Made by a program: the position numbers and the translations under genes
From: an uncultured Candidatus Saccharibacteria bacterium
GTDB lineage: Bacteria > Patescibacteriota > Minisyncoccia > UBA6257 > JACOXY01
Assembly: GCA_964357615.1 (NCBI GenBank)
Contig: CAYHMC010000006.1
Coordinates: forward strand, 7,144 to 71,143
Length of the DNA stretch: 64,000 nt
Direction of reading: 5' to 3'
In this document: in pieces, positions 1 through 60,555 of the stretch
Layout: each line of letters starts with the position of its first letter
Position numbering within the stretch: the stretch's first letter is position 1
The notes under the pieces: generated by a model
The model's database searches: none
What the model was told of the DNA's origin: nothing
What the model saw: the letters and a program-made list of their open reading frames with translations, nothing else

Positions 1-316
1 CTCCACCGAAAATGTAATCGAGGCGATCGTCTACCATTATTTCAATACGATGCTTTCGCATAAGTACAGATTTACATTTATCACCATGGTCTCCCCACTC
101 CCCACATAAAAGCCTCTTCTCGCTCCATGGAATATTATTTTTTGTGAGCAAATCTTTGGCAACATCACGAGGCATATCAGTTACAATATAAATTTCAATT
201 TCTGGAACTTTTGAAAGTGCTAGGAGCAAAAAACGAAACTCATCTGGATACTTACTAATCACTCCGCCAATATCAAAGCCTATACGCATTCTCTTATTAG
301 ATTTCTTTGGGCTCAT
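1..316 (-). CDS. HAD-like hydrolase family protein, partial (C-terminal part lies beyond window start)
   Basis: Minus-strand ORF starting at ATG 316-314 (MSPKKSNKRMRIGFDIGGVISKYPDEF...) and running off the window start. MRIGFDIGGV resembles the HAD motif I region. ATGA start/stop overlap with the upstream gene. Confidence 0.35.
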   Translation of the reverse strand, partial: MSPKKSNKRMRIGFDIGGVISKYPDEFRFLLLALSKVPEIEIYIVTDMPRDVAKDLLTKNNIPWSEKRLLCGEWGDHGDKCKSVLMRKHRIEIMVDDRLDYIFGG

Positions 317-3637: not shown

Positions 3638-3761
3638 AATAAAACTTATATTAATTAATAATGGGGATTCGACCCCCTATATATAGAAGCCGTACAAGGA
3701 ACGCGCCTCTTACAAGTCGAAAGTCTTCGCGCCACCTACGAACAATTCAAATCTTACCTTC

Positions 3762-3835
3762 TGGTGGACCATGGGAGAATCGAACTCCCGTACCCCGGAT
3801 GCAAACCGGGTGCACTACCACTATGCTAATGGCCC
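3762..3835 (-). tRNA. tRNA-Ala (anticodon TGC), CCA encoded
   Basis: Reverse complement reads GGGCCATTAGCATAGTGGTAG...CCCGGTTTGCATCCGGG...GGGAGTTCGATTCTCCCATGGTCCACCA. Acceptor stem has G3:U70, anticodon loop is TTTGCAT, and the T-arm is canonical. Confidence 0.85.
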
Positions 3836-5191: not shown

Positions 5192-7426
5192 ATGAAACTA
5201 TCCGGTTCACAAAGTGAATATATTCTATATTTAGCCTCTTTTCCTCCTAGAGAATGTGGTATTGCAACATTTACTCAAGATTTAAGCGTTGCTTTTGATA
5301 AAAAATTTAACCCAGCTATAAAGTCTCGAATAGCGGCACTAAACGACGAACGACACACCATTTATAACTATGGAAATAAGGTTGTAGATCAAATTGTAGC
5401 CACAGAACTGCATGAATATGTAAAGCTAGCTAAAAGAATTAATTCTAGAGACGATATTAAGGTTATAAATATTCAACATGAATTCGGGCTTTTTGGTGGC
5501 GAGTGGGGTGACTACATAATCCCCTTTCTACAAGCGCTCGAAAAACCAGTCGTAATAACTTTTCACTCTGTAATTTCGGAACCAGACGACCATCTAAGGA
5601 ATGTTGTGCGAGCTATTGCAGAACATTCAATGTCTTTAGTTGTGATGAACAAACTTTCAGAGAAAACATTAATTACCGATTACAAAATATCGAAACAAAA
5701 AATCATGGTTATCCCTCATGGAATTCCATCAACAGCATTTGAGCCCAGTGAAATTTCAAAAGAAAAACTTGGGCTATCTGGCAATACAGTGCTCTCAACA
5801 TTTGGAATGTTAAGCCCCAACAAGGGAATCGAATATGCTATTCGCGCGCTTCCAGAAGTTATAAAACAATTTCCAAATGTGGTCTATTTAGTGCTCGGCG
5901 AAACACATCCTCTAATTAGAAAATCAAACGGAGAAGAATATAGAAATTTTTTAATAAAAGAAGTTGGTCGTCTTGGTCTCGACAAACATGTAAAGTTTTA
6001 TAATAAATACCTAACTCTCGATGAAATAGTTTCATTTTTGAAGGCAACAGATATTTATATTGGACCATCACTAGACATGCGCCAGTCTGTTTCTGGAACT
6101 CTTTCTTATGCGCTGGGGTGTGGTAGACCAGTAATATCAACCGAGTCAGAATATGCAAAATATTTAATTGATAGCACTGTAGGTCTTTTAGTAAAACCAA
6201 AAAACGATAGAGCTCTAAGAGATGCGATACTTCAAATGCTTCAGGACCCAAAATGGATGAAAAGTCTAAGCGCACAAGCATATGAAAAATCTCGCCCTAT
6301 GACATGGCCAAATGTAGCAGCAGCACATATGAATTTATATAAGAAATTTACTGAATTTGGTGAAGAAGAAAAGAAGCTCCCCGAACTAAAACTAGATCAT
6401 CTAAAGAGACTGACTGATAAATTCGGCATTTTGCATTTTGCTAAATACAGCACTCCTGAAACTAGGTATGGTTACAATCTCGACGACAATGCTAGGGCCT
6501 TAATTGTCGCAACACAAAGTTACGCACGAAATCACACGGTTGAAATGCTAGATTATATCAAAATCTACTTAAGCTATTTTGAATTTGTAATGCGTTCTGA
6601 TGGAACTTTTGCAAATATTGTTTCTTCTAAGTTAGTAAGAGACAAAACGCGAGACGAAGATGTCCAAGGCAGAGCATTTTGGGCACTTGGATATGTGGCT
6701 GCACAAAACTCTCTTCCAAAGGAAGTTGTTGATAAAGCAACGATTCTACTTAAGAAGGGACTGCGCAATGTGAGGGGTCTTAAATCCCCTCGGGCCATAG
6801 CCTTTACAATGATTGGCCTTTATTACTTCATAAAAAGCAATCCACAAAAATCTTTAATGCAAATTTTTACTAAATTTGCAGACTCTCTCACCGCTTTATA
6901 TAAAGAAAATTCGGATGCCGATTGGCAATGGTTTGAACCGCACCTTACATACTCAAACGCCGCTCTCCCCGAAGCGCTATTTTATGCTTATGAGTTAGTT
7001 AAAGATAAAAAATATTTAAATGTCGCTGAAGAATCTATCGCTTTTCTTAAAGGAATAACTTTTCTAAAAAAGCATTACTCTCCTATCGGCCAAAAAGGAT
7101 GGTTCTTCAGAGACAAGGCTAGGGCATTTTTTGATCAACAGCCAGAAGATACCGCACACATGGTTCAAGCCAAACTCACAGCTTATAATGTAACTGGCAA
7201 GTCAGAGCACTTTGAAGATGCGTACCGTGCATTTCAATGGTTTCTTGGCAAAAACTTTTTAAATCAAGTTATTTACGATGAGGGAACGGGTGGGTGTCAC
7301 GATGGATTAGGACAAGATGGAGTCAATTTGAACCAAGGCTCAGAATCTACAATATCTTACCTCCTAGCAAGATTGGCATTTGAAAATATAAACAAACCTC
7401 AAACCGACCTAGTACAAGAAGCGTAA
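5192..7426 (+). CDS. glycosyltransferase family 4 (GT-B, group 1) fused to a C-terminal (alpha/alpha)6-barrel-like domain
   Basis: 744 aa. N-terminus YILYLASFPPRECGIATFTQDL plus a GT4-type C-terminal lobe (about aa 1-390). The following roughly 350 aa (FGILHFAKYSTPETRYGYNLDDNARALI...) look like a glycosidase/epimerase-type alpha-barrel. Confidence 0.65.
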   Translation: MKLSGSQSEYILYLASFPPRECGIATFTQDLSVAFDKKFNPAIKSRIAALNDERHTIYNYGNKVVDQIVATELHEYVKLAKRINSRDDIKVINIQHEFGLFGGEWGDYIIPFLQALEKPVVITFHSVISEPDDHLRNVVRAIAEHSMSLVVMNKLSEKTLITDYKISKQKIMVIPHGIPSTAFEPSEISKEKLGLSGNTVLSTFGMLSPNKGIEYAIRALPEVIKQFPNVVYLVLGETHPLIRKSNGEEYRNFLIKEVGRLGLDKHVKFYNKYLTLDEIVSFLKATDIYIGPSLDMRQSVSGTLSYALGCGRPVISTESEYAKYLIDSTVGLLVKPKNDRALRDAILQMLQDPKWMKSLSAQAYEKSRPMTWPNVAAAHMNLYKKFTEFGEEEKKLPELKLDHLKRLTDKFGILHFAKYSTPETRYGYNLDDNARALIVATQSYARNHTVEMLDYIKIYLSYFEFVMRSDGTFANIVSSKLVRDKTRDEDVQGRAFWALGYVAAQNSLPKEVVDKATILLKKGLRNVRGLKSPRAIAFTMIGLYYFIKSNPQKSLMQIFTKFADSLTALYKENSDADWQWFEPHLTYSNAALPEALFYAYELVKDKKYLNVAEESIAFLKGITFLKKHYSPIGQKGWFFRDKARAFFDQQPEDTAHMVQAKLTAYNVTGKSEHFEDAYRAFQWFLGKNFLNQVIYDEGTGGCHDGLGQDGVNLNQGSESTISYLLARLAFENINKPQTDLVQEA

Positions 7427-8832: not shown

Positions 8833-9876
8833 ATGTTTGCTCGCTCAAATAGTAATCCGATTTTAAAACCTAATACAAAAAATGAGTGGGAAAGTTTTAA
8901 AGTCTATAACCCAGGTGCATTCTACGAAGATGGCGTTTACCATCTTTTTTATCGTGCCATGGGCAAAAATTGGATATCATCTATTGGACATGCCGTATCT
9001 GGTGATGGTGAAAATTTTGAACGCTCTAAGAGTCCGCTTCTCGCTTCTCCTCATAATTCCTACAGCATAGAAGATCCACGGGTAACAAAAATAAAGGATA
9101 AATATTTTTTAACGTTTACTCGCTACGATAAACTAAATGTTACCTTAAATCTTGCAACATCTACAGATTTAAAAAATTGGAATGTACATGGCGAAATGAT
9201 TCCAAGTTGGGATTTTAAAAAAGCCAGTGGGTTTTTGGTTGACTGGGATCCAGCCCAAGTTGAAGCAGAAAAAAATCTGGAAGCTAGTCACAAATGGTGC
9301 AAGGCCGGTGGAATTTTTGGAGAAATAATTGGTGACAAATATTGGATGCTCTTCGGAGATAGGCATATTTGGTTAGCAAATTCTGATGATGGAATAACTT
9401 GGAATCCAATATGGGAACCATTTATCAAGGCGCGAGGCAAAAACTATTTTGACGAAGAACATATAGAAATGGGTCCACCACCTATAAAAACTTCAAAGGG
9501 GTGGCTAGTTTTATATCATGGAGTAAATGATAAAATTGTTTACCGTCTTGGATTTATGCTTTTGGATTTAAATGATCCAACAAAAATACTTTATCGATCT
9601 AAGGATGCAATCTTTGAACCTCAAGAGTCATACGAGCTAAAAGGAATTGTGGATATTTTACCAGGTGGCTCTAAAGCAATGGAGAAAATGAATACGGAAG
9701 AGCTTGCAGAGTTTATTCAAAGATACGAAGAGAAAGACAAAATGCCTCGAGTAGCTTTTGTAAATGGTGCAGTTTTGGTTGGAGACACTTTGCGTATTTA
9801 TTACGGAGCAAGCGATTCGGTAATTTGCACTGCAACGGCAAATATAAGTGCTATTTTAAATCTTACACAAAGTTAA
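8833..9876 (+). CDS. glycoside hydrolase family 130 protein (second copy)
   Basis: NPILKPNTKNEWESFKVYNPGAFYEDGVYHLFYRAMG...IEDPRVTKIKDKYFLTFTRYD is a GH130 signature. It is a paralog of the 4003-5049 gene. Confidence 0.75.
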   Translation: MFARSNSNPILKPNTKNEWESFKVYNPGAFYEDGVYHLFYRAMGKNWISSIGHAVSGDGENFERSKSPLLASPHNSYSIEDPRVTKIKDKYFLTFTRYDKLNVTLNLATSTDLKNWNVHGEMIPSWDFKKASGFLVDWDPAQVEAEKNLEASHKWCKAGGIFGEIIGDKYWMLFGDRHIWLANSDDGITWNPIWEPFIKARGKNYFDEEHIEMGPPPIKTSKGWLVLYHGVNDKIVYRLGFMLLDLNDPTKILYRSKDAIFEPQESYELKGIVDILPGGSKAMEKMNTEELAEFIQRYEEKDKMPRVAFVNGAVLVGDTLRIYYGASDSVICTATANISAILNLTQS

Positions 9877-9889
9877 AACAAAAAAGACC

Positions 9890-10834
9890 CTATTTTTCTA
9901 AAAGTTTTAATTTAATCTTATAAGCATTGCCGTGATGCAACATTCCCAAGTAAGAATTAGCTGCTTGAATATTTTCATTTCCTTTCATTCTTTTAAACAT
10001 TCTTCTTTTAGTAGCCGTGCGCAATACGCGATGACTAGGAAAGTGCACCCAACCTAAAAAATCAAGACCAGAAGCAAGAGTTTTCATATAAAGTTTTTGG
10101 GGATGTAATTCTAAGCCCAATCTATAATATAAAAAGTTTTTTATTGGTTCTATTTGATTTTCTAACCATTCCCTATTTTCCGACAAAATCACGAAGTCAT
10201 CTGCATAACGAATATAATAATTAGCTTTAAGCCTGTGCTTAACAAATTGGTCAAATTCATTCATATAGATATTCACAAAAAGCTGAGATGTTAAGTTGCC
10301 AAGCGGCAGACCAACTCCCGATCTAGTGAAAAAACTATCAATTATATTTTGAAGAAGCCTAAGTAAATCTTTGTCCTCAATTCTTGCGCACAAAATATCC
10401 ATCAAAACTTGGTGGTGAATATTAGCAAAGAATTTTTTTATATCACATTTTAGAATGAAGCAGGTTCGAGTATTGTTTTTACTAACTTTGTAGCCAAAAC
10501 TCTTAAACCTATCTAATGCTTTATGAGTTCCCTTATTTATTCTGCATGAATAAGAATCTGAAATAAAGGTTTTATCAAAAAATGGATATAGTTTTCTATA
10601 AATTGCGTGATGCAAAAGTCTGTCCCTAACAGAGGCTTTGTGTATATTTCTTGGTTTTGGATCAGAGATATTAAAAGCTTTATAATTTCCGTGACTGTAG
10701 GTTTTATTTAAAAGCTCCTCATACAGCAATAGAATATTGTCCATGAATTTTAAAGAAAATTCTTGAACATCTTTTCTATTATGCTTACCCTTTACAAATT
10801 CTCTCCAAGCTTCTAATATATTTTCCACTCCCAA
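9890..10834 (-). CDS. diversity-generating retroelement (DGR) reverse transcriptase
   Basis: 314 aa with RT motifs and YADD (IRYADDFVIL). Motif 4 reads LPLGNLTSQLFVNIY, the DGR-specific [I/L]GxxxSQ form. The compact size is typical of DGR RTs, and it lies next to a TR/VR pair. Confidence 0.85.
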   Translation of the reverse strand: MGVENILEAWREFVKGKHNRKDVQEFSLKFMDNILLLYEELLNKTYSHGNYKAFNISDPKPRNIHKASVRDRLLHHAIYRKLYPFFDKTFISDSYSCRINKGTHKALDRFKSFGYKVSKNNTRTCFILKCDIKKFFANIHHQVLMDILCARIEDKDLLRLLQNIIDSFFTRSGVGLPLGNLTSQLFVNIYMNEFDQFVKHRLKANYYIRYADDFVILSENREWLENQIEPIKNFLYYRLGLELHPQKLYMKTLASGLDFLGWVHFPSHRVLRTATKRRMFKRMKGNENIQAANSYLGMLHHGNAYKIKLKLLEK

Positions 10835-10873
10835 AACTTCTTCGAAATTTTAAGTAAACATAATTTTCATTAT

Positions 10874-10902
10874 AAAAAAAAAACTTTTAATCCCCCCCCC
10901 CC
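10874..10902. repeat. homopolymeric A10 and C11 tracts in the divergent RT/Avd intergenic region
   Basis: aaaaaaaaaa (10874-10883) and ccccccccccc (10892-10902), located between the RT start (10834, minus) and the Avd start (10931, plus). Confidence 0.9.
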
Positions 10903-10930
10903 ACGGAATAATATTTCAATTATTCAACAC

Positions 10931-11251
10931 TTGATACGTGCATATAAACTTTGGCACGGATTCTTGCCTCATATCCCAAAAGACGCACGCTACACTGTTG
11001 GCGCCAAAGTAGATTCTGCTTTTATTGAAACAGTTGAAGCGGTGTTCCGTGCAAGTATCACAGCTAAAGATAAAAAAATTGCCTACATCGAAGAAGCTTC
11101 GATAAAATTGGATATAGTTAAATTTTTCCTACAGATTATCTGGGAAATCAAAGCATTGGATACTAAAAAATATGCTCTTATCTCTGCAGAACTAAATGAG
11201 ATAGGCAGAATGATTGGCGGCTGGCTAAGACAAGCTATGAGCCGAAACTAA
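10931..11251 (+). CDS. Avd-like accessory variability determinant (four-helix-bundle protein, TIGR02436-like), TTG start
   Basis: 106 aa. The pattern ...IPKDARYTVGAKVDSAFIETVEAV...KIAYIEEASIKLDIVKFFLQIIWEIKAL...ISAELNEIGRMIGGWL matches the four-helix-bundle / Avd family. It is adjacent to the RT and TR. Confidence 0.65.
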   Translation: MIRAYKLWHGFLPHIPKDARYTVGAKVDSAFIETVEAVFRASITAKDKKIAYIEEASIKLDIVKFFLQIIWEIKALDTKKYALISAELNEIGRMIGGWLRQAMSRN

Positions 11252-11298
11252 CCACCAAACATTTTCTCCCTACTATTTTATAAAACATTTATTGCCAG

Positions 11299-11427
11299 TT
11301 GCCGGAAACTGCCACTCGACCGTTCGAGTTCTGATCATTGTCGAGCCAGTTCCAGTTGAGATACCAACGCTTGCCATCCTGATTGAGGTACGGGACGTTC
11401 CGGTTGCCGTTCTCGTTCACCACGATT
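11299..11427 (-). repeat. DGR template repeat (TR), about 129 bp, coding orientation on minus strand
   Basis: About 87% identical to 11768-11896. All 17 mismatches are T on the plus strand here (A on the minus strand). The minus-strand translation is Asn-rich (VVNENGNRNVPYLNQDGKRWYLNWNWLDNDQNSNGRVAVSG) with AAC codons. Confidence 0.85.
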
Positions 11428-11683
11428 GTACGAAAAATCACCCACGTCACCACCCCTTGAATTATCTTGAGGTTGTATATTATTCGGAATCTATAATTCT
11501 CTGATTTCTCGCACCAAGTAGCAAAAATGTGTAGCGTATAGATACAACTCTCTGGCAGAAAAATTTTCCGCTGCCATTCTCGTTTGTATTATCGCAGAGT
11601 TCAACCGCGTACAACCTTAGCCGTACGCGCAACGTCTACTATCTATATTTAAAATATCATAAGTTTAATAAATAAAAAAATTA

Positions 11684-11701
11684 CCCTTACTTTCGTAAGG
11701 G
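11684..11701 (-). terminator. rho-independent terminator downstream of DGR target gene (CCCTTAC-TTTC-GTAAGGG plus T-run on minus strand)
   Basis: A 7-bp perfect stem with a 4-nt loop is followed on the minus strand by TTTTTTT (A-run 11674-11680 on plus). It lies about 60 bp after the target stop. Confidence 0.6.
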
Positions 11702-11763
11702 ATTTCGGTCCAAGGGACCAAGGGACAAGAAGTCCCCAGGTCCCAAGGATCCGAATGCCAATG

Positions 11764-12378
11764 CTACTTGCCGGAAACTGCCACCCGACCGTCCGAGCGC
11801 TGACCATGGCCGAGCCAGTCCCAGTGGAGATACCAACGCTTGCCACCCTGATCGAGGTACGGGACGTCCCGGTCGCCGTTCTCGCGCACCACGACCAAGC
11901 CCGGAAAATCGATGTAGACTTTTCCGAGAAGAGCCATGAACTCGGGGAACTCGTCTTGATGGTCGACCAGCCAGACTGCTTGCTGATAACCGAGAGTTGG
12001 CAAAGAGATGATTCTTCGCTCGTATTCGACGCCACCGACCGAACCTTCGTCAGGCCGGAGAACCGTTCCGAGGGATAGCGTTACGGCTTCCGTCGGCGAG
12101 TTGTCGCGCTCGATGGATTTGATCCACGAGAACTTCGCTTGAATCTCTGCGATAGTCGGACGTGGAAGTGCGGGAATCTGAATCGCGACGTCCTCCATTT
12201 TCCGGAAGAAGCCTGCTGCAGCGATGAGCTTCGCGACGAACTCGTCGGTGAGCAACTTCAACGTATCCTCCGAAAGGTCGAGAACTGCTTCTTCTGATCG
12301 ACTGACCTTCAGTCCGCCGATGATGCGCGTTGTGATGGTCGTGAGAAACCCGAATGCCGAACCGATTTGTGACTTCAT
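11764..12378 (-). CDS. DGR target (variable) protein, 204 aa, GC-rich, VR-encoded C-terminus
   Basis: The minus-strand ORF ends 4 nt beyond the VR. Its GC content (mid-50s percent) is far above the flanking genes (about 33%). The C-terminal WYL.W.WL ligand-binding-like segment is diversified. Confidence 0.75.
   Translation of the reverse strand: MKSQIGSAFGFLTTITTRIIGGLKVSRSEEAVLDLSEDTLKLLTDEFVAKLIAAAGFFRKMEDVAIQIPALPRPTIAEIQAKFSWIKSIERDNSPTEAVTLSLGTVLRPDEGSVGGVEYERRIISLPTLGYQQAVWLVDHQDEFPEFMALLGKVYIDFPGLVVVRENGDRDVPYLDQGGKRWYLHWDWLGHGQRSDGRVAVSGK
11768..11896 (-). repeat. DGR variable repeat (VR) at 3' end of target gene
   Basis: Partner of the TR. It encodes VVRENGDRDVPYLDQGGKRWYLHWDWLGHGQRSDGRVAVSG at the target protein's C-terminus. 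The substitutions are AAC/AAT/GAT to CGC/GAC/GGT/CAC/CAT/GGC. Confidence 0.85.
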
Positions 12379-12651: not shown

Positions 12652-13809
12652 CTACCTCAACTTATACCTTTCCTTTATAAGCTTAGTAATTTGTTTTGCA
12701 ATAGTATGATATTCAAATTTTGCTAGGGCATGCTCCGCTCCAGCTTTACCCATTTTTTCGCGCAAATCTTTATCTGTTAGGAGTTTAAGCAACGATTCTG
12801 CAAGAGAATTAACATCAGCACGATATGCAAATGTTTTTGGTTTATCAAAAATAATTTTATGGTCCTCTTCATAACCCATATCTTTATAAACCCATTCTTC
12901 ATCCAACTCTACAGTATCAGCCACAGGCGCTAAAAAACCAGTGACATCTTTAATGATTGTCTCCTTAGGCCCCATATGGTCAATTGAAATAACTGGTTTA
13001 CCACATGCTTGAGCTTCTACCTGAATCATTCCAAAACCCTCAAGACGAGATGGAGCTGCGTATATATCACAAGTGTTTAATAAAACATTCATAAACTCGT
13101 ATGACATTGGGCCTTCTGCAAATACAACGCGATCTTTATCCTCTCCTAATTCTTCAAGCAATGCTTGTTCGTCATCATAGTGTGAGTCCGCACTCTCCCC
13201 TCCCCAAAGTTTACAAATATATTTCCAAGAAATACCTTTCGTTCTTAACTCATCTTGTATTAACTTAAGAGCTTTAAAAACTTCTTGAGCTCCTTTTGAA
13301 GTAACATCTCCTCCGGCAGTTAAGATAACTACATCGCTATCTTCTATGCCAAGCATTGCCTTCATTGTCTTAATTTGCGGATCAGATTTTTTTAGTGGAT
13401 GACGACAAGCAGGATCGAAGCCAATATGTGCCACTTCAAAATTTTTAACATTTGTTCCGTCTCGCTTATAAGTTTCTTTCACCCACTCACTTGTAACTAA
13501 GACAAGTGGAAGTTCCCCTAAATCTTTTTGATAGTTTGCAACCCAGCCGTCAGCCACAAGCCAAGGCACAGAATTAATGCCAAATTGCTTTGCATGATGA
13601 ACAATGTCCGGTGTATTATTCCAAAACCCCACACCAACTGCAATATCTGGTTTAAAATATTTATAAGTCCATTCTTTTTGAAACTCAGCTCCTATACTAC
13701 ATGGCATAACATCTTCTCCGTTTTCTTTCATACCAGTATACAAAAAATGACCTTGCATCGAAAGACCATCGGGTTCAGGAGGATACGCATATAAAATTAC
13801 AGACTTCAT
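12652..13809 (-). CDS. glycosyltransferase family 4 (group 1) protein
   Basis: 385 aa with EGFGMIQVEAQACGKPVISID and a GT-B fold signature. Confidence 0.75.
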   Translation of the reverse strand: MKSVILYAYPPEPDGLSMQGHFLYTGMKENGEDVMPCSIGAEFQKEWTYKYFKPDIAVGVGFWNNTPDIVHHAKQFGINSVPWLVADGWVANYQKDLGELPLVLVTSEWVKETYKRDGTNVKNFEVAHIGFDPACRHPLKKSDPQIKTMKAMLGIEDSDVVILTAGGDVTSKGAQEVFKALKLIQDELRTKGISWKYICKLWGGESADSHYDDEQALLEELGEDKDRVVFAEGPMSYEFMNVLLNTCDIYAAPSRLEGFGMIQVEAQACGKPVISIDHMGPKETIIKDVTGFLAPVADTVELDEEWVYKDMGYEEDHKIIFDKPKTFAYRADVNSLAESLLKLLTDKDLREKMGKAGAEHALAKFEYHTIAKQITKLIKERYKLR

Positions 13810-14087
13810 CCCATACGAAATAGGAAGCGCTTTAAACGATATTTTATATATCGTTTGCCTTTCCCACTTTTTAAATATAATTCTCTCGACCTGGCATCAT
13901 CTTTATTCATACAAGCTTCGTAATAAATTACATTAAATGGTCCTCTGCCTTTGGTATAGGTTGATTTTCCAGCATTATGTTCTTTAAAGCGCTTCCGTAA
14001 ATCGTTAGTAAGACCAGTATATAATTTATTGTCCTTCTTGCTCTGTAAAATATAAGTATAGTACATAGGGATTTCGTACGGGATCAT
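13806..14087 (-). CDS. GIY-YIG nuclease domain protein
   Basis: 93 aa. YYTYILQSKKDNKLYTGLTNDLRKRFKEHN is the GIY-YIG/URI motif. ATGA overlap with the downstream GT4 gene. Confidence 0.7.
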   Translation of the reverse strand: MIPYEIPMYYTYILQSKKDNKLYTGLTNDLRKRFKEHNAGKSTYTKGRGPFNVIYYEACMNKDDARSRELYLKSGKGKRYIKYRLKRFLFRMG

Positions 14088-43115: not shown

Positions 43116-43457
43116 TTACCATCTAGAAAAACTTACTTCAAAATCAGGAAATGCCAGCTTAATCATTCGAACAGTTTGTTCTCTATCGGGCTCTACTCCA
43201 TATTCACCACTCAAATCATATACACGAATTACTTTATTGCTTGAATTCATATTAATTCTACCACCACCAAGACACACAACGCCTACAGCAATTCCATTTA
43301 ATTCTCGTTTCAATAAAGAAAATATATCTTTGTGGTACTTACACCACACATCACCTCTTACAACTATCTTCTTGTTGTCGCCACCAATTACTTCGGCAAC
43401 TATATATTTTTGATCACAATCAGCATCTATAACTACTTCCTTTATGCCTTCGAGCAT
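43116..43457 (-). CDS. conserved hypothetical protein, 113 aa (intact paralog of the poly-G interrupted gene at 46393-46732)
   Basis: MLEGIKEVVIDADCDQKYIVAEV...VCLGGGRINMNSSNKVIRVYDLSGEYGVEPDREQT... It aligns with the 46526-46732 ORF and its frameshifted continuation. Confidence 0.55.
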   Translation of the reverse strand: MLEGIKEVVIDADCDQKYIVAEVIGGDNKKIVVRGDVWCKYHKDIFSLLKRELNGIAVGVVCLGGGRINMNSSNKVIRVYDLSGEYGVEPDREQTVRMIKLAFPDFEVSFSRW

Positions 43458-45645: not shown

Positions 45646-45849
45646 ATGGCAATTATCATAAACATCGACATTATGTTAGCTAAGCGAAAAATGAGCGTCA
45701 CCGAACTCGCCCTTAAAGTCGGAATTACAATGGCTAATATTTCTGTATTAAAAAACGGAAAAGCGAAGGCTATCCGATTATCAACATTAGAGGCGATTTG
45801 CAAAGCGTTAGAGTGCCAGCCCGGAGATATTTTAGAATATAAAAAATAA
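45646..45849 (+). CDS. XRE-family helix-turn-helix transcriptional regulator
   Basis: 67 aa with an LAKRKMSVTELALKVGITMANISVLKNGK HTH. Confidence 0.75.
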   Translation: MAIIINIDIMLAKRKMSVTELALKVGITMANISVLKNGKAKAIRLSTLEAICKALECQPGDILEYKK

Positions 45850-45909
45850 AAAGTATTACCTTTAAATCTCCATCGATATCAAAAAGATATTTTTATTTCA
45901 TACGCTAGC

Positions 45910-46026
45910 GGAGGAGGAAGGATTGAACGCACTCACCTTGTTCGCTTCACAAAACCCACGGTTTCGTGAACTTCCTACACGGGAAAACTAGAGTTTTCCC
46001 GACCCCTTTCCTGTTCGAATCCTTCC
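45910..46026 (-). ncRNA. tRNA-linked structured element, copy 1 (candidate novel ncRNA or mini mobile element), immediately 3' of tRNA-Ser
   Basis: Bounded by an inverted copy (46013-46026) and a direct copy (45910-45928) of the tRNA-Ser T-arm/acceptor 3' end. Internal conserved hairpins at 45950-45968 and 45981-46000. Paralogous to 46991-47135. Confidence 0.5.
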
Positions 46027-46060
46027 ATTAAAAAATAGCATAAAGCCATTTTTTAATTTG

Positions 46061-46147
46061 CGGAGGAGGAAGGATTCGAACCTTCGATACCATTTCTGGC
46101 ATACCTGATTTCGAGTCAGGCCCATTCGGCCACTCTGGCACTCCTCC
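46061..46147 (-). tRNA. tRNA-Ser (anticodon CGA), type II with long variable arm
   Basis: Reverse complement reads GGAGGAGTGCCAGAGTGGCCGAATGGGCCTGACTCGAAATCAGG...GAAGGTTCGAATCCTTCCTCCTCCG. Anticodon loop is CTCGAAA. Confidence 0.85.
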
Positions 46148-46255
46148 AAAGATTAGTTTTAGTTTATATCAAATAAAATAATAAAAAAAGCGCCAGAAAA
46201 AGCACAGCGCGTACTTAGTAATAAAAGTTCTAAATCTCAATAAAATTAAACAAAA

Positions 46256-46277
46256 GTCCGACCCTTTCGAATCGGAC
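46256..46277 (-). terminator. terminator hairpin GTCCGA-N10-TCGGAC downstream of the 46393-46732 gene
   Basis: A 6-bp GC-rich stem followed by a T-rich run on the minus strand. Confidence 0.45.
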
Positions 46278-46392
46278 GAGGTTCTGCTCCCTCTAGGCTC
46301 TCCATTCATTTTACAGATGAACGGGGACAACTAACTGATTTCCCTTGTTATTTGGGAAACTAAGAAAAGGCAGCGCTATTCATCCGCGACTG

Positions 46393-46732
46393 CTACCACC
46401 CAACCTGGAACTCGGGAAACGCCACTTGAAGCATCTTGGCAGTCTGCTCTCGGTCCGGCTCCATTCGGTAATCAGTGCTCCTATCCCAAATGCGGATTGC
46501 CTTCACCGCGGGATTAATCGCGATTCTACCCCCCCCCAATACATCGAGCTCTCAGACCTTTCGGCTGAACCTCTTCACAAAGTTTCTCGAGAATATCTCG
46601 GTGATATTCGCAATCCTTATTGGCACGGATCACTACCTTTGATGCGCCGATTCCGTCGGTGACTTCGGCGACGATGAACTTATAGCCACCAGTGGAATCG
46701 ATAACTACTTCCTGTAGGGTTTCAAGATTCAT
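46393..46732 (-). pseudogene. poly-G interrupted (candidate phase-variable) paralog of the 43116-43457 gene; currently truncated after CIGGG by a G9 tract
   Basis: The 46526-46732 ORF ends ...CIGGG-stop at a nine-G run (C9 on plus, 46539-46547). With 8 or 11 G the frame continues as RIAINPAVKAIRIWDRSTDYRMEPDREQTAKMLQVAFPEFQVGW-stop (to 46393), which aligns with the intact paralog. Confidence 0.65.
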
Positions 46733-46990
46733 CAGCCTTCTCCTTTGTTGTGGTGTTAAGTGCTAGACATAAAGCTTCTATCATTAATTATAACAAATTA
46801 TTATCTATATGTCAAGAGTAATAAAAATAACCTTATTTCAGGCCAATTTTGTATAGCTCTTATAATTAAAACTTTTGCACCCCAATTGCAATCATCAATA
46901 AGTTTTTGCTTCCAGAAATTCAATTCGAAATAACCACCAAACGAAACGAAACGAGACTAGGTTAATTAAAGCTCTTTGATTTTTCCTACG

Positions 46991-47135
46991 TGGTGCCCTC
47001 GAGAGGAATCTCACGCGCTCTTCGCCTCCGCCAGTCGGCGGATGGCGAATCGCTTTACGAAACCCACGGTTTCGTAAACTTCCTACACGGAGGGGAACTA
47101 TCCCCTCCGACCCTCCCCTAGTTCTATTCCTCTCG
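46991..47135 (-). ncRNA. tRNA-linked structured element, copy 2, immediately 3' of tRNA-Arg; 3' end mimics tRNA-Arg acceptor with encoded CCA
   Basis: Inverted copy (47121-47135) and direct copy (46991-47010, ...GATTCCTCTCGAGGGCACCA) of the tRNA-Arg 3' end. Hairpins at 47057-47075 and 47089-47108, plus an extra GC hairpin at 47023-47047. Confidence 0.5.
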
Positions 47136-47164
47136 ATGACAAAAAATATTCAACTGAAGCCATG

Positions 47165-47236
47165 TGCCCTCGAGAGGAATCGAACCTCTATTTTATCCTT
47201 AGGACGGATCTATTCTATCCATTGAATTACGAGGGC
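47165..47236 (-). tRNA. tRNA-Arg (anticodon CCT)
   Basis: Reverse complement reads GCCCTCGTAATTCAATGGATAGAAT...GATCCGTCCTAAGGATA...AGAGGTTCGATTCCTCTCGAGGGCA. Anticodon loop GTCCTAA, discriminator A. Confidence 0.8.
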
Positions 47237-47329
47237 AATGAATTCAGCTTACAATTTTATTATCAATTTATCAAATCAATTTTTGCCTAAATGTTTGCAC
47301 ATGGTTGAGTGCTGGAGTACAATGAATAA

Positions 47330-48007
47330 ATGATTGGGAATAATTTTAAAGAAAAAGCTCTGGTCTTAAGAAGTAGGGGCTATACATTTAGAGAGATCGA
47401 AAGAAAATTAAATACTTCAATCCCAAAGGGAACTCTCTCTTACTGGTGTAAAAATGTAGCATTACCAAAATTCTATAAAGAAAAAATTAATAAACTCAAT
47501 AAAGAAAATCTTACAAAAGGAAGAGGTATTGCTCACAAAAACAGACAAACTGAACAGAATGAATACCATGAGGAACTTCTTACTAAAAATAAGCACTTGC
47601 TGAAGATACTCAACAAAGATACAAAAAAGTTAATTTTAGCCATGCTTTATTTAGGAGAGGGTGCCAAATGGAAGGGCCACAGAGGACTTATGTTGGGAAG
47701 TTCAGATCCTTTGATTATTCAATTATATATAAAATTACTAGAACAGGTATATGACATCAAAAAAGAATTTATGAGGGCAAGAATTTCATATAGAGCTGAT
47801 CAAAATATAGTTAAATTAACTTATTTTTGGTCAAAAATAACGGGACTACCAAAAAAACATTTTTATAAAACTATTCCTGATCCCAGGAGTATTGGAAAAA
47901 TAACAAAGAATTCTAGCTATAAAGGGGTATGCGTTATAACTTGTGCTGGCACAAAAATTCAATTAGAATTAGAATCGATTGCAGAATTAATTTCAAGGGG
48001 CCTATAA
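47330..48007 (+). CDS. LAGLIDADG-like homing endonuclease candidate with N-terminal HTH
   Basis: 225 aa. LILAMLYLGEGAKWKG resembles the LAGLIDADG motif, preceded by an HTH-like N-terminal segment. It is free-standing between tRNA genes, and its stop overlaps the first 10 nt of tRNA-Ala(GGC). Confidence 0.4.
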   Translation: MIGNNFKEKALVLRSRGYTFREIERKLNTSIPKGTLSYWCKNVALPKFYKEKINKLNKENLTKGRGIAHKNRQTEQNEYHEELLTKNKHLLKILNKDTKKLILAMLYLGEGAKWKGHRGLMLGSSDPLIIQLYIKLLEQVYDIKKEFMRARISYRADQNIVKLTYFWSKITGLPKKHFYKTIPDPRSIGKITKNSSYKGVCVITCAGTKIQLELESIAELISRGL

Positions 48008-48071
48008 TTCAGTGGTAGAATATCTGCATGGCATGCAGAAGGCGCGAGTTCGATTCTCGCTAGGTCCACCA
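47998..48071 (+). tRNA. tRNA-Ala (anticodon GGC), CCA encoded
   Basis: GGGCCTATAATTCAGTGGTAGAATATCTGCATGGCATGCAGAAGGCGCGAGTTCGATTCTCGCTAGGTCCACCA. Acceptor stem has G3:U70. Confidence 0.85.
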
Positions 48072-59859: not shown

Positions 59860-60555
59860 CTATTGAATTTTATCTGACTTCTGGAGATTGTGTTTCATGC
59901 AAAGCAACCTTACATTTTTTGCAGATAAACTAGTGCCTCCCCGAGAAAATGGAAGATCATGATCAAAGTGAAGATTTTTTGTTTCTCCACATGTAACACA
60001 TTTACCCTGATCTCTTTTCCAAACTTCCCTTTTAACTTCTGAGGGAATTAATCGTGTATGTTCTACTGATAATAATTTAGCGTTATTTTCTTTTCTATCC
60101 GAAAGCTTCAAAATAAACCGATATACATTTCGTCTTCCATCGTATACCTGATTATAGTCAATGAGATCAAAATATCCCTTAAGAGACCACACTCCGGGGA
60201 ATATTTTTTCATAAACTTTAACTAGCTCTGATGCATTTTTATTTTCTTTATATTCTTTTACCGCATCAATAAAACGACCATTTTGGGTAGATCTACCAGT
60301 TGGTAATTTTTCAGGTTGATCATCGTTTTTTGGATTATGATTATGCCCCCTCCTTGAAACATCATGACCTTCATATTCAATAGTTATTCCATCTTCGTGA
60401 ATTCTATCCTGATACGGAGCATTAGTTCTCTGAGACATTAGAATGACAGAATATGAATGATTCATTCTAAAATTCATACCACGCTGGAGGGTTTGTACAT
60501 TCTCAGCATCACACATTTCCCTGTAACTTAAGATGTCGTCTTGAATTTTAGTCAT
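59860..60555 (-). CDS. HNH endonuclease with N-terminal recognition-like domain (possible type IV restriction-like enzyme)
   Basis: The C-terminal CVTCGETKNLHFDHDLPFSRGG...HN HNH motif. About 170 aa of N-terminal domain of unknown specificity. Confidence 0.6.
   Translation of the reverse strand: MTKIQDDILSYREMCDAENVQTLQRGMNFRMNHSYSVILMSQRTNAPYQDRIHEDGITIEYEGHDVSRRGHNHNPKNDDQPEKLPTGRSTQNGRFIDAVKEYKENKNASELVKVYEKIFPGVWSLKGYFDLIDYNQVYDGRRNVYRFILKLSDRKENNAKLLSVEHTRLIPSEVKREVWKRDQGKCVTCGETKNLHFDHDLPFSRGGTSLSAKNVRLLCMKHNLQKSDKIQ

Follow-up and report, generated by a model that had tools for sequence, protein, structure and literature searches.

Gene-less folded inserts at tRNA gene 3' ends in an ultra-small CPR bacterium look like a new, miniature type of site-specific mobile element

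Described systems and the architecture of the family

In 2002, Williams reportedly described prophages, ICEs and IMEs that use tyrosine recombination to enter tRNA genes at the 3' end, with a sublocation at the T-loop. Recombination sites that act as folded single strands are known from attP(+) of the Vibrio phage CTX (IMEX elements) and from integron attC, and RNAs of tRNA 3' external transcribed spacers are known as well, e.g., 3'ETS-leuZ of E. coli. Group I introns occur in tRNA genes of Patescibacteria, where they lie in the anticodon loop at position 35/36, exceed 200 nt and match group I models (PMC13011429). In the literature we found no description of the elements reported here, the nearest being these introns of Patescibacteria tRNAs.

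We analysed a window of 64,000 nucleotides (the whole stretch of DNA under study) from an ultra-small CPR bacterium that carries a family of gene-less, tightly folded DNA inserts of ~150-190 nt at tRNA gene 3' ends; the family appears to be a new type of site-specific mobile element in miniature form. An earlier note on this DNA had claimed two paralogous structured elements 3' of tRNA-Ser(CGA) and tRNA-Arg(CCT) with flanks matching the local tRNA, and had proposed looking for further copies beside matching tRNAs. Alignment and the repeats confirmed the pair (E1 and E2), and three further copies were found (E3 in the source genome, L003 and L025), giving five copies in three organisms and four different tRNA genes, with every testable copy standing 3' of a tRNA that matches its own flanks. 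Scores with model R1 are 100-136 bits (E 1e-26 to 1e-36). In the source genome at least three copies lie within ~18 kb, each at a different tRNA.

On the tRNA-sense (minus) strand the order is tRNA, a short spacer folding into a hairpin of its own, X' (the T-loop-to-3' end of the same tRNA in inverted orientation), a core of three hairpins, and X (a direct copy of that 3' end, exact over 17-18 nt in E1 and E2). Taken together, X' and the 3' arm of the spacer repeat the tRNA 3' end and its flank in inverted orientation, and closure of the core gives a four-way junction of the stem P1 and hairpins A, B and C. The element contains no ORF. On the plus strand the GC skew is negative throughout, so the tRNA-sense strand is the lagging-strand template here.

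The elements share with tRNA-gene integrative elements and their integrase-less derivatives (CIMEs) a tRNA 3' end directly repeated on either side of the insert, a supplied working end with a displaced native end, and empty sites in relatives; they differ in being only ~150-190 nt long, without genes, with an inverted target copy and a covarying four-way junction, and in forming one family in four tRNA genes. Direct repeats of the att type were found in E1, E2, L003 and L025, together with empty targets in which the native end equals the distal repeat. No integrase, transposase or HUH enzyme was seen in or near any copy (including the flanks of L003 and L025) or among the scanned subset of the 72 ORFs of the window.

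As in CTX attP and attC, an inverted repeat within one strand can form a double-stranded mimic of the target or partner site, structure is conserved more than sequence, well-paired arms flank a middle with imperfect pairing, and the topology after insertion is X, body, X', variable structure, X. An intrastrand inverted repeat was found in P1 and in the long proximal hairpin, and the structure is maintained by compensatory change. The target here, however, is a tRNA gene end and not dif or attI, outer R''/R' boxes are lacking, the T-loop GTTC/GAAC is placed at the inner end of the stem, and the core is conserved in sequence, whereas the terminal structure of attC is variable. A XerCD/IntI-type enzyme and dif-like arms or outer R''/R' boxes (RYYYAAC...GTTRRRY) were not found.

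MITEs are likewise short and ORF-less, present in several copies per genome, bounded by terminal inverted repeats (here X'/X) and disruptive to short-read assemblies; the short-read contigs of the source organism end at or beside the element copies. Unlike in MITEs, the terminal repeats differ by copy and match the local target, and the 17-22-nt "target duplication" is a functional gene end; neither terminal repeats common to all copies nor a short target duplication of fixed length were found. We know of no parent transposase for the element.

The copies in the window and in other genomes

The two elements of the window are composed as follows.

E1, downstream of tRNA-Ser(CGA):
46060..46147, minus strand: tRNA-Ser(CGA), working gene, no encoded CCA
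46027..46059, minus strand: spacer, AU-rich hairpin AUUAAAAAAUGGC / GCUAUUUUUUAAU, beginning directly after the discriminator
46013..46026, minus strand: X', tRNA-Ser T-loop and 3' T-stem strand, inverted (14/14 against 46068-81)
46002..46012, minus strand: junction J1/A, purine-rich, AGGAAAGGGGU, containing GGGGUC
45980..46001, minus strand: hairpin A, 9 bp, variable in sequence with full compensation between copies
45971..45979, minus strand: A-B junction, single-stranded, GUGUAGGAAG..., holding AGGAAG
45946..45970, minus strand: hairpin B, 11 bp, UUCACGAAACC-GUG-GGUUUUGUGAA, best conserved of all parts in the family
45929..45945, minus strand: what is left of hairpin C, a 3-bp stem (GCG/UGC) and a loop of 11 nt
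45908..45928, minus strand: X, GTTC-AATCCTTCCTCCTCCGC (45908-45924 identical to 46060-76, 17/17, plus GTTC)

E2, downstream of tRNA-Arg(CCT):
47164..47236, minus strand: tRNA-Arg(CCT), working gene with the proximal repeat copy, followed by CAT and not CCA
47142..47163, minus strand: spacer, weak hairpin with a central TTCA-GT-TGAA
47121..47141, minus strand: X', tRNA-Arg T-loop through discriminator, inverted (18/21 against 47165-85)
47110..47120, minus strand: junction J1/A, UAGGGGAGGGU
47088..47109, minus strand: hairpin A, CGGAGGGGA-UAGU-UCCCCUCCG
47079..47087, minus strand: A-B junction
47054..47078, minus strand: hairpin B
47015..47053, minus strand: hairpin C, GCG/CGC base, internal loop and a 6+6 bp GC-rich arm
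46991..47014, minus strand: X with CCA (46993-47010 identical to 47164-81, 18/18; the remainder of the CCA follows)

The last ~17-22 nt of tRNA-Ser(CGA) (T-loop to one base past the discriminator) are the proximal repeat copy of E1, whose X' and X form the 5' and 3' strands of the closing stem P1; by analogy with the tRNA-Arg(TCG) sites, this X is read as the displaced native tRNA-Ser 3' end and would be attR-like. The fold z-scores of the tRNA-sense strand were -2.95 for E1 and -6.87 for E2. Both the direct and the inverted tRNA-end copies described earlier were borne out, the inverted copy of E2 being longer than first described and reaching the discriminator. The GC hairpin that had been noted as extra in the second copy is hairpin C; in this form it is common to E2 and E3 and is ancestral-looking, and its long arm, present in the other copies, is deleted in E1.

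A 40-nt degenerate pattern of the shared core matched exactly twice against 0 expected, and the spacings between the conserved blocks are fixed at 20 and 21 nt in E1, E2, E3 and L003. The GGGGUC of junction J1/A is invariant across the family whatever the local T stem, AGGAAG is conserved in 5/5 copies, and hairpin B and AGGAAG are nearly invariant between distant genomes. The spacers of E1, E2 and L003 show no mutual homology.

E3 (on L009/L013) lies ~110 bp beyond the right end of the window and is partly decayed: its X is interrupted by an insertion of 9 nt, and there are two C.A mismatches. L003, in a second carrier organism, was recovered as a true match of an 18-base core pattern searched in one genome per species; among the matches listed, one was true (L003), one was doubtful at a contig end (L005) and four were chance. 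With a junction-anchored pattern in JGI metagenomes, the true copy among the matches listed was L009, i.e., the source organism itself. L003 and L025 share a locus and keep X in 27/27 nt (including CCACGTA), X' in 24/26 and the spacer arms, whereas the loops and the intergenic DNA nearby have diverged to about 50%. The proximal flank of L003 (CATACAAAACT) is similar to the native flank of L024 (CATAAAAACT).

Rfam returned only tRNAs, at the gathering threshold for the whole window and credibly at E up to 10 for 45700-47400; ribozymes, group I/II introns, tmRNA, Y RNA and retron msr were within its scope and gave no credible match. There was no blastn match to phage and plasmid collections, and two pattern scans of viral contigs yielded no true match. 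Several candidates were rejected: a degenerate copy downstream of tRNA-Ala(TGC) at 3638-3761 (no R1 match), a structured RNA at 46230-46530 (the 3' part of a frameshifted Janus/PHPT1-like gene), a hammerhead, twister or hairpin ribozyme core (none by eye or in Rfam), X' as a primer-binding site for the tRNA 3' end, and X' as a direct copy of the 5' T-arm half (which fails for E2, the reverse-complement model fitting 14/15 and 18/21).

Filled and empty tRNA sites

The empty sites in relatives that the earlier note had suggested looking for were found. In L020, L021/L022 and L019, tRNA-Arg(CCT) is followed directly by tRNA-Ser(CGA) with gaps of 74, 53 and 14 nt, respectively, and model R1 detected no element in these genomes (the neighbouring ORF and tRNA-Ala(GGC) are also shared by L020 and L021). 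Around the second carrier, L003, the tRNA-Arg(TCG) site is filled in L003 and L025 and empty in the relatives L024 and L026, where the gene is uninterrupted and ends in ...GAGCGCA-CCA. At the filled sites the working tRNA ends in ...GAGCGCA-CAT or -CAC, and it is the distal copy that ends in ...GAGCGCA-CCA-CGTA. E2 follows the same pattern, with CCA after the distal copy and not after the working tRNA-Arg gene; CCA is absent in E1 and E3. Because the filled working tRNA lacks CCA and the distal copy carries it, the "direct copy" represents the native 3' end after displacement, and X with CCA of E2 is read accordingly as the displaced native end of tRNA-Arg. The distal T-loop has a 1-nt deletion of the element type (GTTC-AAT) in E1, L003 and L025, which is what the side of attR derived from the element should show. 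The direct repeat is an attL/attR-type duplication around a tiny ORF-less insert, the sites are polymorphic for insertion and empty state, the CCA end is displaced, and several copies occupy different tRNAs. The earlier view that the locus is unlike an att duplication is not supported, and a reading of the CCA as a functional acceptor mimic or an RNA-derived copy is unneeded, the CCA being genomic in the native gene. Elsewhere, these genomes also contain orphan fragments of tRNA 3' ends (L024, ~11390-11415).

The CCA bears also on a retro-origin, in which a reverse transcriptase would have produced the tRNA-end copies as cDNA from mature tRNA, as with a primer-binding site or a retroplasmid. 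That X is followed by CCA in E2, L003 and L025 though the adjacent working genes have none, that the copy begins near T-loop position 57/58, and that the window encodes a reverse transcriptase would all fit such an origin. It is nevertheless very improbable, since the native empty tRNA-Arg(TCG) genes encode CCA in DNA and make an RNA intermediate unnecessary, E1 and E3 have no CCA, and the only reverse transcriptase of the window (9890-10834) is that of a canonical DGR, 35 kb distant, which also has bAvd and a TR/VR pair (15/17 mismatches at TR adenines). No reverse transcriptase was found adjacent to the elements of the window or near the L003 and L025 copies, in agreement with the earlier judgement that this is not a retron.

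Pairing, folding and possible mobility

In the 8-bp hairpin (GGGAAAAC/GUUUUCCC versus GGAGGGGA/UCCCCUCC) six of eight positions differ and 6/6 are compensated; this covariation, already pointed out for the two copies, survived re-alignment and grew as copies were added. Across the five copies, 15/39 core base pairs have changed on both sides and 95% of cells are paired, and 0/500 shuffles reached the observed values of core pairing and covariation. Selection therefore acts on intrastrand pairing. As the sequence of hairpin A has wholly changed, it is not a conserved protein-binding palindrome. The exceptions in the per-pair table are about equally sense-strand wobbles (5 cells) and C.A mismatches (4 cells), which in our own reading fits a constraint on DNA, or on either strand, better than one strictly on RNA.

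The covariation bears on the idea that the elements are inert scars, i.e., attL-attR remnants of larger integrase-carrying prophages or islands that lost their interior, as in cis-mobilizable elements, and have no activity of their own. Direct repeats with a displaced CCA end are the classic signature of tRNA-gene integration, and the orphan 3' fragments such as that in L024 point the same way. We regard scars as improbable, however, because one compact architecture with fixed spacings recurs in five copies, four tRNA genes and three organisms, to which separate deletions would not all lead; neutral scars would not preserve their pairing through extensive compensatory evolution, and no int gene fragments were found.

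For full-length transcripts of tRNA plus element, two near-isoenergetic global folds are predicted. In the alternative fold, predicted to be 5.5-13.4 kcal/mol lower, distal X takes up the 5' acceptor strand of the tRNA, and X' holds the proximal 3' half in a hairpin of ~30 bp. The elements could thus be a functional cis-acting RNA or a processed tRNA-trailer RNA, co-transcribed with the tRNA, in which X' pairs with the tRNA 3' half or with X as a decoy, either as a two-state transcript controlling tRNA maturation or as a stable small RNA. Besides the two folds and the strong covariation, this would agree with the lack of a predicted promoter or terminator between tRNA and element, with the retention of X, X' and spacer arms in L003 and L025 while loops diverged, and with the near-invariance of hairpin B and AGGAAG in distant genomes. 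We consider a trailer RNA rather doubtful all the same: presence is patchy in close relatives, with ordinary tRNA genes at the empty sites, four different tRNAs carry copies and E3 is degenerate, G.U and C.A cells show no strand asymmetry (in our reading), and a two-state fold is automatic given three copies of one segment. The family is, within reach of the two patterns, extremely narrow in 185,579 species genomes and the JGI metagenomes, and it matches no Rfam family. Like the 3'ETS RNAs, the elements stand immediately 3' of a tRNA and are probably co-transcribed, but they bear no relation to them in sequence or structure and are insertions absent from close relatives.

In the minimum-free-energy folds, J1/A base-pairs with the 3' strand of the distal T-stem, and the 5' strand of the tRNA does so with the distal acceptor strand. 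This invites comparison with an intron-like intervening sequence in the native T-loop, whose purine-rich junction would serve as 5' T-stem strand for distal X in a giant tRNA ending in the native CCA, to be used or processed; tRNA introns are abundant in Patescibacteria (PMC13011429), and group I introns are structured RNA-like insertions in tRNA genes of the same phylum. The elements, however, sit at the T-loop/3' end with a complete, canonical tRNA upstream, so that removal is unnecessary, and they match no group I model and bear no group I signature; GGGGUC is constant whatever the T stem, and in our reading the J1/A-X register varies by copy (a covarying J1/A-distal X helix was rejected for this reason). 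An intron-like origin is thus highly improbable.

A miniature mobile element targeting tRNA 3' ends, one of the options raised in the earlier note, is favoured by the empty sites in relatives and the several copies per genome. We give a probability of roughly one half to a non-autonomous, tRNA-3'-end-specific integrative mini-element that is moved in trans, possibly as a folded single strand. Such an element would integrate site-specifically into the 3' part of tRNA genes, by recombination within the 17-22-nt identity block from the T-loop to one base past the discriminator. It would bring its own CCA-less copy of the block, which would now complete the working tRNA, and the native 3' end with its encoded CCA and flank would be shifted 150-170 nt downstream as X. 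The element proper would then consist of the replacement 3' end with a short flank, a loop, X' (the inverted copy of both), the purine-rich junction and hairpins A, B and C. Catalysis would be supplied in trans by a putative recombinase, and the substrate may be a folded single strand in which X' paired with the tRNA-end copy mimics the target duplex; a folded-strand substrate would explain both the tRNA-matched inverted repeat of each copy and the hairpin covariation.

Against the mini-element, no excised form or circle junction was observed, and the model has no account of the way in which X' and the replacement end would be refitted to a new tRNA. The conservation of X, X' and arms between L003 and L025 could mean in-situ selection for a host function and not repeated homing, and the likeness of the L003 proximal flank to the L024 native flank would require, in a simple model, an attP whose mimicry of the target extends past the tRNA. 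One recombinase recognising four different tRNA ends would also be unusual. Tentatively, and with a good deal of doubt, the mini-element may be taken further: the whole body of a ~170-nt gene-less element might be a recombination substrate, a folded strand that imitates the target tRNA gene end in base-paired form (X' with its own copy of the end), is inserted by a host or helper recombinase and is retargetable to other tRNA genes by changing two complementary arms, i.e., a minimal nucleic-acid-addressed integration module that repairs the gene it interrupts.

For annotation and assembly, the consequences are broken short-read contigs, orphan tRNA 3' ends with CCA and an altered encoded-CCA status of tRNA genes. 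Were the elements functional trailer RNAs instead, they would constitute an unusual cis switch that competes with tRNA folding. If mobile, they would be the smallest kind of site-specific integrative element, gene-less, placed in essential single-copy tRNA genes and carrying just enough sequence to restore the gene. The tRNA-matched arms around one conserved four-way-junction core suggest that the target is set by base-paired structure and not by a dedicated protein-DNA code, and such structure-based addressing would be of interest for the biology of CPR mobile elements and possibly for programmable insertion.

Element architecture and intrastrand pairing

The same layout was found 3' of tRNA-Ser(CGA) and tRNA-Arg(CCT), both of which were identified by ARAGORN and Rfam and are read here on the minus strand.

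46060-46147, minus strand: tRNA-Ser(CGA)
47164-47236, minus strand: tRNA-Arg(CCT)

Parts of the element, 5' to 3' (X', inverted copy, and X, distal direct copy, of the local tRNA 3' end)
1: spacer of 22-33 nt, itself a hairpin
2: X', the tRNA's T-loop, 3' T-stem strand and acceptor strand in inverted orientation
3: purine-rich junction, its 3' end the invariant GGGGUC
4: hairpin A
5: junction with AGGAAG
6: hairpin B, ACGAAACC-GUG-GGUUUYGU
7: AA, then hairpin C
8: X, the tRNA 3' end repeated in direct orientation

The local tRNA is matched by X' at 14/14 positions in E1 (the copy after tRNA-Ser) and 18/21 in E2 (the copy after tRNA-Arg), and exactly by X (17/17 and 18/18, respectively). X reaches one base beyond the discriminator; in E2 the rest of CCA follows directly, and the sequence after the tRNA-Arg gene itself is CAT. 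Neither element-bearing tRNA gene encodes CCA; both element-free tRNA-Ala genes of the window, at 3762-3835(-) and 47998-48071(+), do. A 40-nt core pattern common to E1 and E2 has exactly two matches in the window (0 expected), and Rfam searches that admitted hits up to E 10 gave no match to the element. Taken with the spacer hairpin's 3' arm, X' becomes an inverted copy that covers the tRNA 3' end and about 12 nt of its flank. One segment is thus present three times: as a proximal direct copy, as an inverted copy and as a distal direct copy.

The closing stem (P1) that X' and X form by pairing makes a four-way junction of each element, with fold z-scores of -2.95 for E1 and -6.87 for E2. The earlier note had described a fully compensated 8-bp hairpin, and this holds: E1 and E2 differ at 6 of the 8 positions, and all 6 are compensated. 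Over the five copies now known, 95% of cells are paired and 15 of 39 core pairs changed on both sides; none of 500 shuffles matched this covariation, and the signal collapses once partners are slid. Intrastrand pairing is under purifying selection. Our reading of the per-pair covariation table gave 5 G.U wobble cells on the tRNA-sense strand and 4 C.A mismatch cells, which would be wobbles on the opposite strand, and thus no clear strand asymmetry of the RNA type.

The three segment copies allow two global folds for full-length transcripts. The first is predicted to comprise a normal tRNA, the spacer hairpin and P1; in the second, the tRNA 3' half would be held by X' in a hairpin some 30 bp long and the 5' acceptor strand would pair with the distal X. 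For tRNA plus element (window 45898-46147(-) and 46983-47236(-); 5783-6032(-) in L003 and 6312-6581(-) in L025, two further loci with the element), the second fold is lower by 5.5-13.4 kcal/mol and is the predicted minimum-energy fold, not the cloverleaf. Single-stranded DNA would have the same two alternatives.

Further copies

Among the matches listed for an 18-base core pattern (one genome per species), one true relative was found, L003, a CPR-like MAG, in which the copy lies directly 3' of tRNA-Arg(TCG) and has an X' and an X that correspond to it; CCA-CGTA follows X, and CAT follows the tRNA gene itself. At the end of an Akkermansiaceae contig (L005, 7290-7361(+)), GGGGTCG...GTAGGAAGTTTACGAAACC occurs without the rest of hairpin B, the contig end truncating the match; it could be a distant relative or chance. 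A junction-anchored pattern run against JGI metagenomes gave, among the matches listed, only L009, which overlaps the right end of the window and is therefore from the same organism (Hainich groundwater). It carries a third copy, E3, about 110 bp past coordinate 64000 (about 64110-64280; L009 2650-2829(-); L013, a further contig of this organism, 1-125(+)). Hairpin A of E3 is E1-like and hairpin C E2-like; X has a 9-nt insertion, two C.A mismatches are present, X' and X disagree over the acceptor portion, and the upstream tRNA is truncated by contig ends. Short-read contigs of this organism stop inside or beside element copies, as expected of a repeat.

A covariance model search, which the earlier note had proposed, returned only E1 and E2 in the window and recovered a fifth, more divergent copy in L025 (106 bits; model built from four copies). 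That the elements are inert scars of larger islands is improbable, being contradicted by five copies of identical architecture and by compensatory evolution.

Empty sites and the displaced CCA

Empty sites, which the earlier note had suggested looking for, exist in relatives of this genome and of L003. The conserved 225-aa protein encoded beside tRNA-Arg led to relatives of the window locus that share the synteny tRNA-Ser(CGA) <- tRNA-Arg(CCT) <- / -> ORF -> tRNA-Ala(GGC), with the two tRNAs adjacent (74 nt apart in L020, 53 nt in L021/L022). In L019 the distance is 14 nt, and the covariance model found no element in any of these. In the window the two tRNAs are kept apart by E2 and about 840 bp more. 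The relatives lack this block between the two tRNAs; it contains a promoter, two terminators and a frameshifted Janus/PHPT1 paralog.

46380-46740, minus strand: Janus/Ocnus (PHPT1-like) paralog between E2 and tRNA-Ser, compared with 43116-43457(-)
46533-46541: run of 9 G, site of its frameshift
46815-46787: its promoter, perfect -35/-10

Relatives of L003 were found via the neighbouring RlpA.

Relatives of the L003 locus (identity to the L003 RlpA protein)
L024, 76%, empty: tRNA-Arg(TCG) 3' end ...GAGCGCA-CCA-CATAAAAAC
L025, 65%, filled: working (complete, upstream) tRNA ...GAGCGCA-CAC...; distal copy ...GAGCGCA-CCA-CGTA
L026, 45%, empty: ...GAGCGCA-CCA-AAAT

Since the uninterrupted genes of L024 and L026 carry CCA, the native tRNA-Arg(TCG) of this clade encodes it; at filled sites the working tRNA has lost CCA and the downstream copy retains it. 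This pattern is expected of an insertion in the 3' part of the gene, with the element bringing a replacement end and the distal X being the displaced native end. The distal T-loop of E1, L003 and L025 has an element-type 1-nt deletion (GTTC-AAT), and the left part of X is thus element-derived. With several copies, spread over four tRNAs and three organisms, the elements are lineage-specific insertions in tRNA gene ends with att-type duplication. Filled and empty states interleave along the identity order of the neighbour protein, which suggests gains and losses, as judged from one protein and not a species tree.

A retro-origin of the CCA is highly improbable: it is unnecessary, CCA being genomic in the empty genes, and the sole reverse transcriptase in the window is part of a canonical, complete diversity-generating retroelement (DGR; 9890-12378), whose template and variable repeats differ at template adenines in 15 of 17 mismatches.

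9890-10834, minus strand: DGR reverse transcriptase
10931-11251, plus strand: DGR bAvd
11293-11425: DGR template repeat
11762-11894: DGR variable repeat, C-terminus of ORF 11764-12378(-)

An intron-like insertion in the T-loop is equally hard to credit, as the proximal tRNA is complete and there is no ribozyme signature.

Other insertions were observed in relatives. In L024 an orphan inverted tRNA 3'-end fragment, which reads GAGTTCAAATCCTGGTGGGCGCA on the opposite strand, lies at about 11390-11415, immediately upstream of the promoter of tRNA-Arg and inside an insertion of about 700 bp (11340-12037) between tRNA-Lys and tRNA-Arg that is absent from L003 and L025. In L021 (7001-7200(-)) and L020 (about 9550-9830(-)), a CCA-encoding native tRNA-Ser(CGA) is split at anticodon position 35/36 by an ORF-less insert (158 nt, measured in L021) carrying a complete, different tRNA-Ser(CGA) without CCA; removal of the insert restores a perfect tRNA (aragorn). 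Position 35/36 is a site reported for group I introns (PMC13011429), and Rfam gave no group I signal in the insert. This second kind of insertion likewise breaks up a tRNA gene and supplies a substitute for it.

Mobile module or functional RNA

We give about even odds (0.5) to the element being a miniature, ORF-less, site-specific integrative element mobilised in trans. Its active form may be a folded single strand, the simplest account of the matched inverted copy and covarying hairpins, in which X', paired with the tRNA-end copy that the element carries, would imitate the duplex target. A folded single strand imitating a duplex site is also how phage CTX attP and integron attC work, and the proposed pairing would follow the same principle. 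GC skew of the plus strand is negative throughout, which makes the tRNA-sense strand of E1 and E2 the lagging-strand template, transiently single-stranded; this is compatible with a single-strand mechanism and is not evidence for one.

The mobile reading is weak in several respects. Neither the flanks of the copies nor the scanned window ORFs yielded a recombinase, no free form of the element was observed, and retargeting between tRNAs is hard to explain, since E1, E2 and L003 have spacers that share no homology. The window also contains a free-standing HNH endonuclease-like ORF (59860-60555(-)) and a GIY-YIG ORF (13806-14087(-)); no link of either to the elements was found. Between L003 and L025, X (27/27), X' (24/26) and the spacer arms are conserved amid diverged loops, which could also reflect a host function. 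A functional trailer RNA or switch would be compatible with the co-transcription context and the two-state fold, and is rather unlikely given its poor fit to a distribution that is patchy, to the degeneracy of E3 and to the missing strand asymmetry.

No prior description of the element was found in the searchable literature. Known tRNA-gene integrative elements share its duplication logic; new here are its size, its gene-free make-up, an inverted arm matched to the target and the use of one conserved junction core at several tRNAs. Tentatively, and with considerable doubt, the element may represent a structure-addressed minimal integration module.
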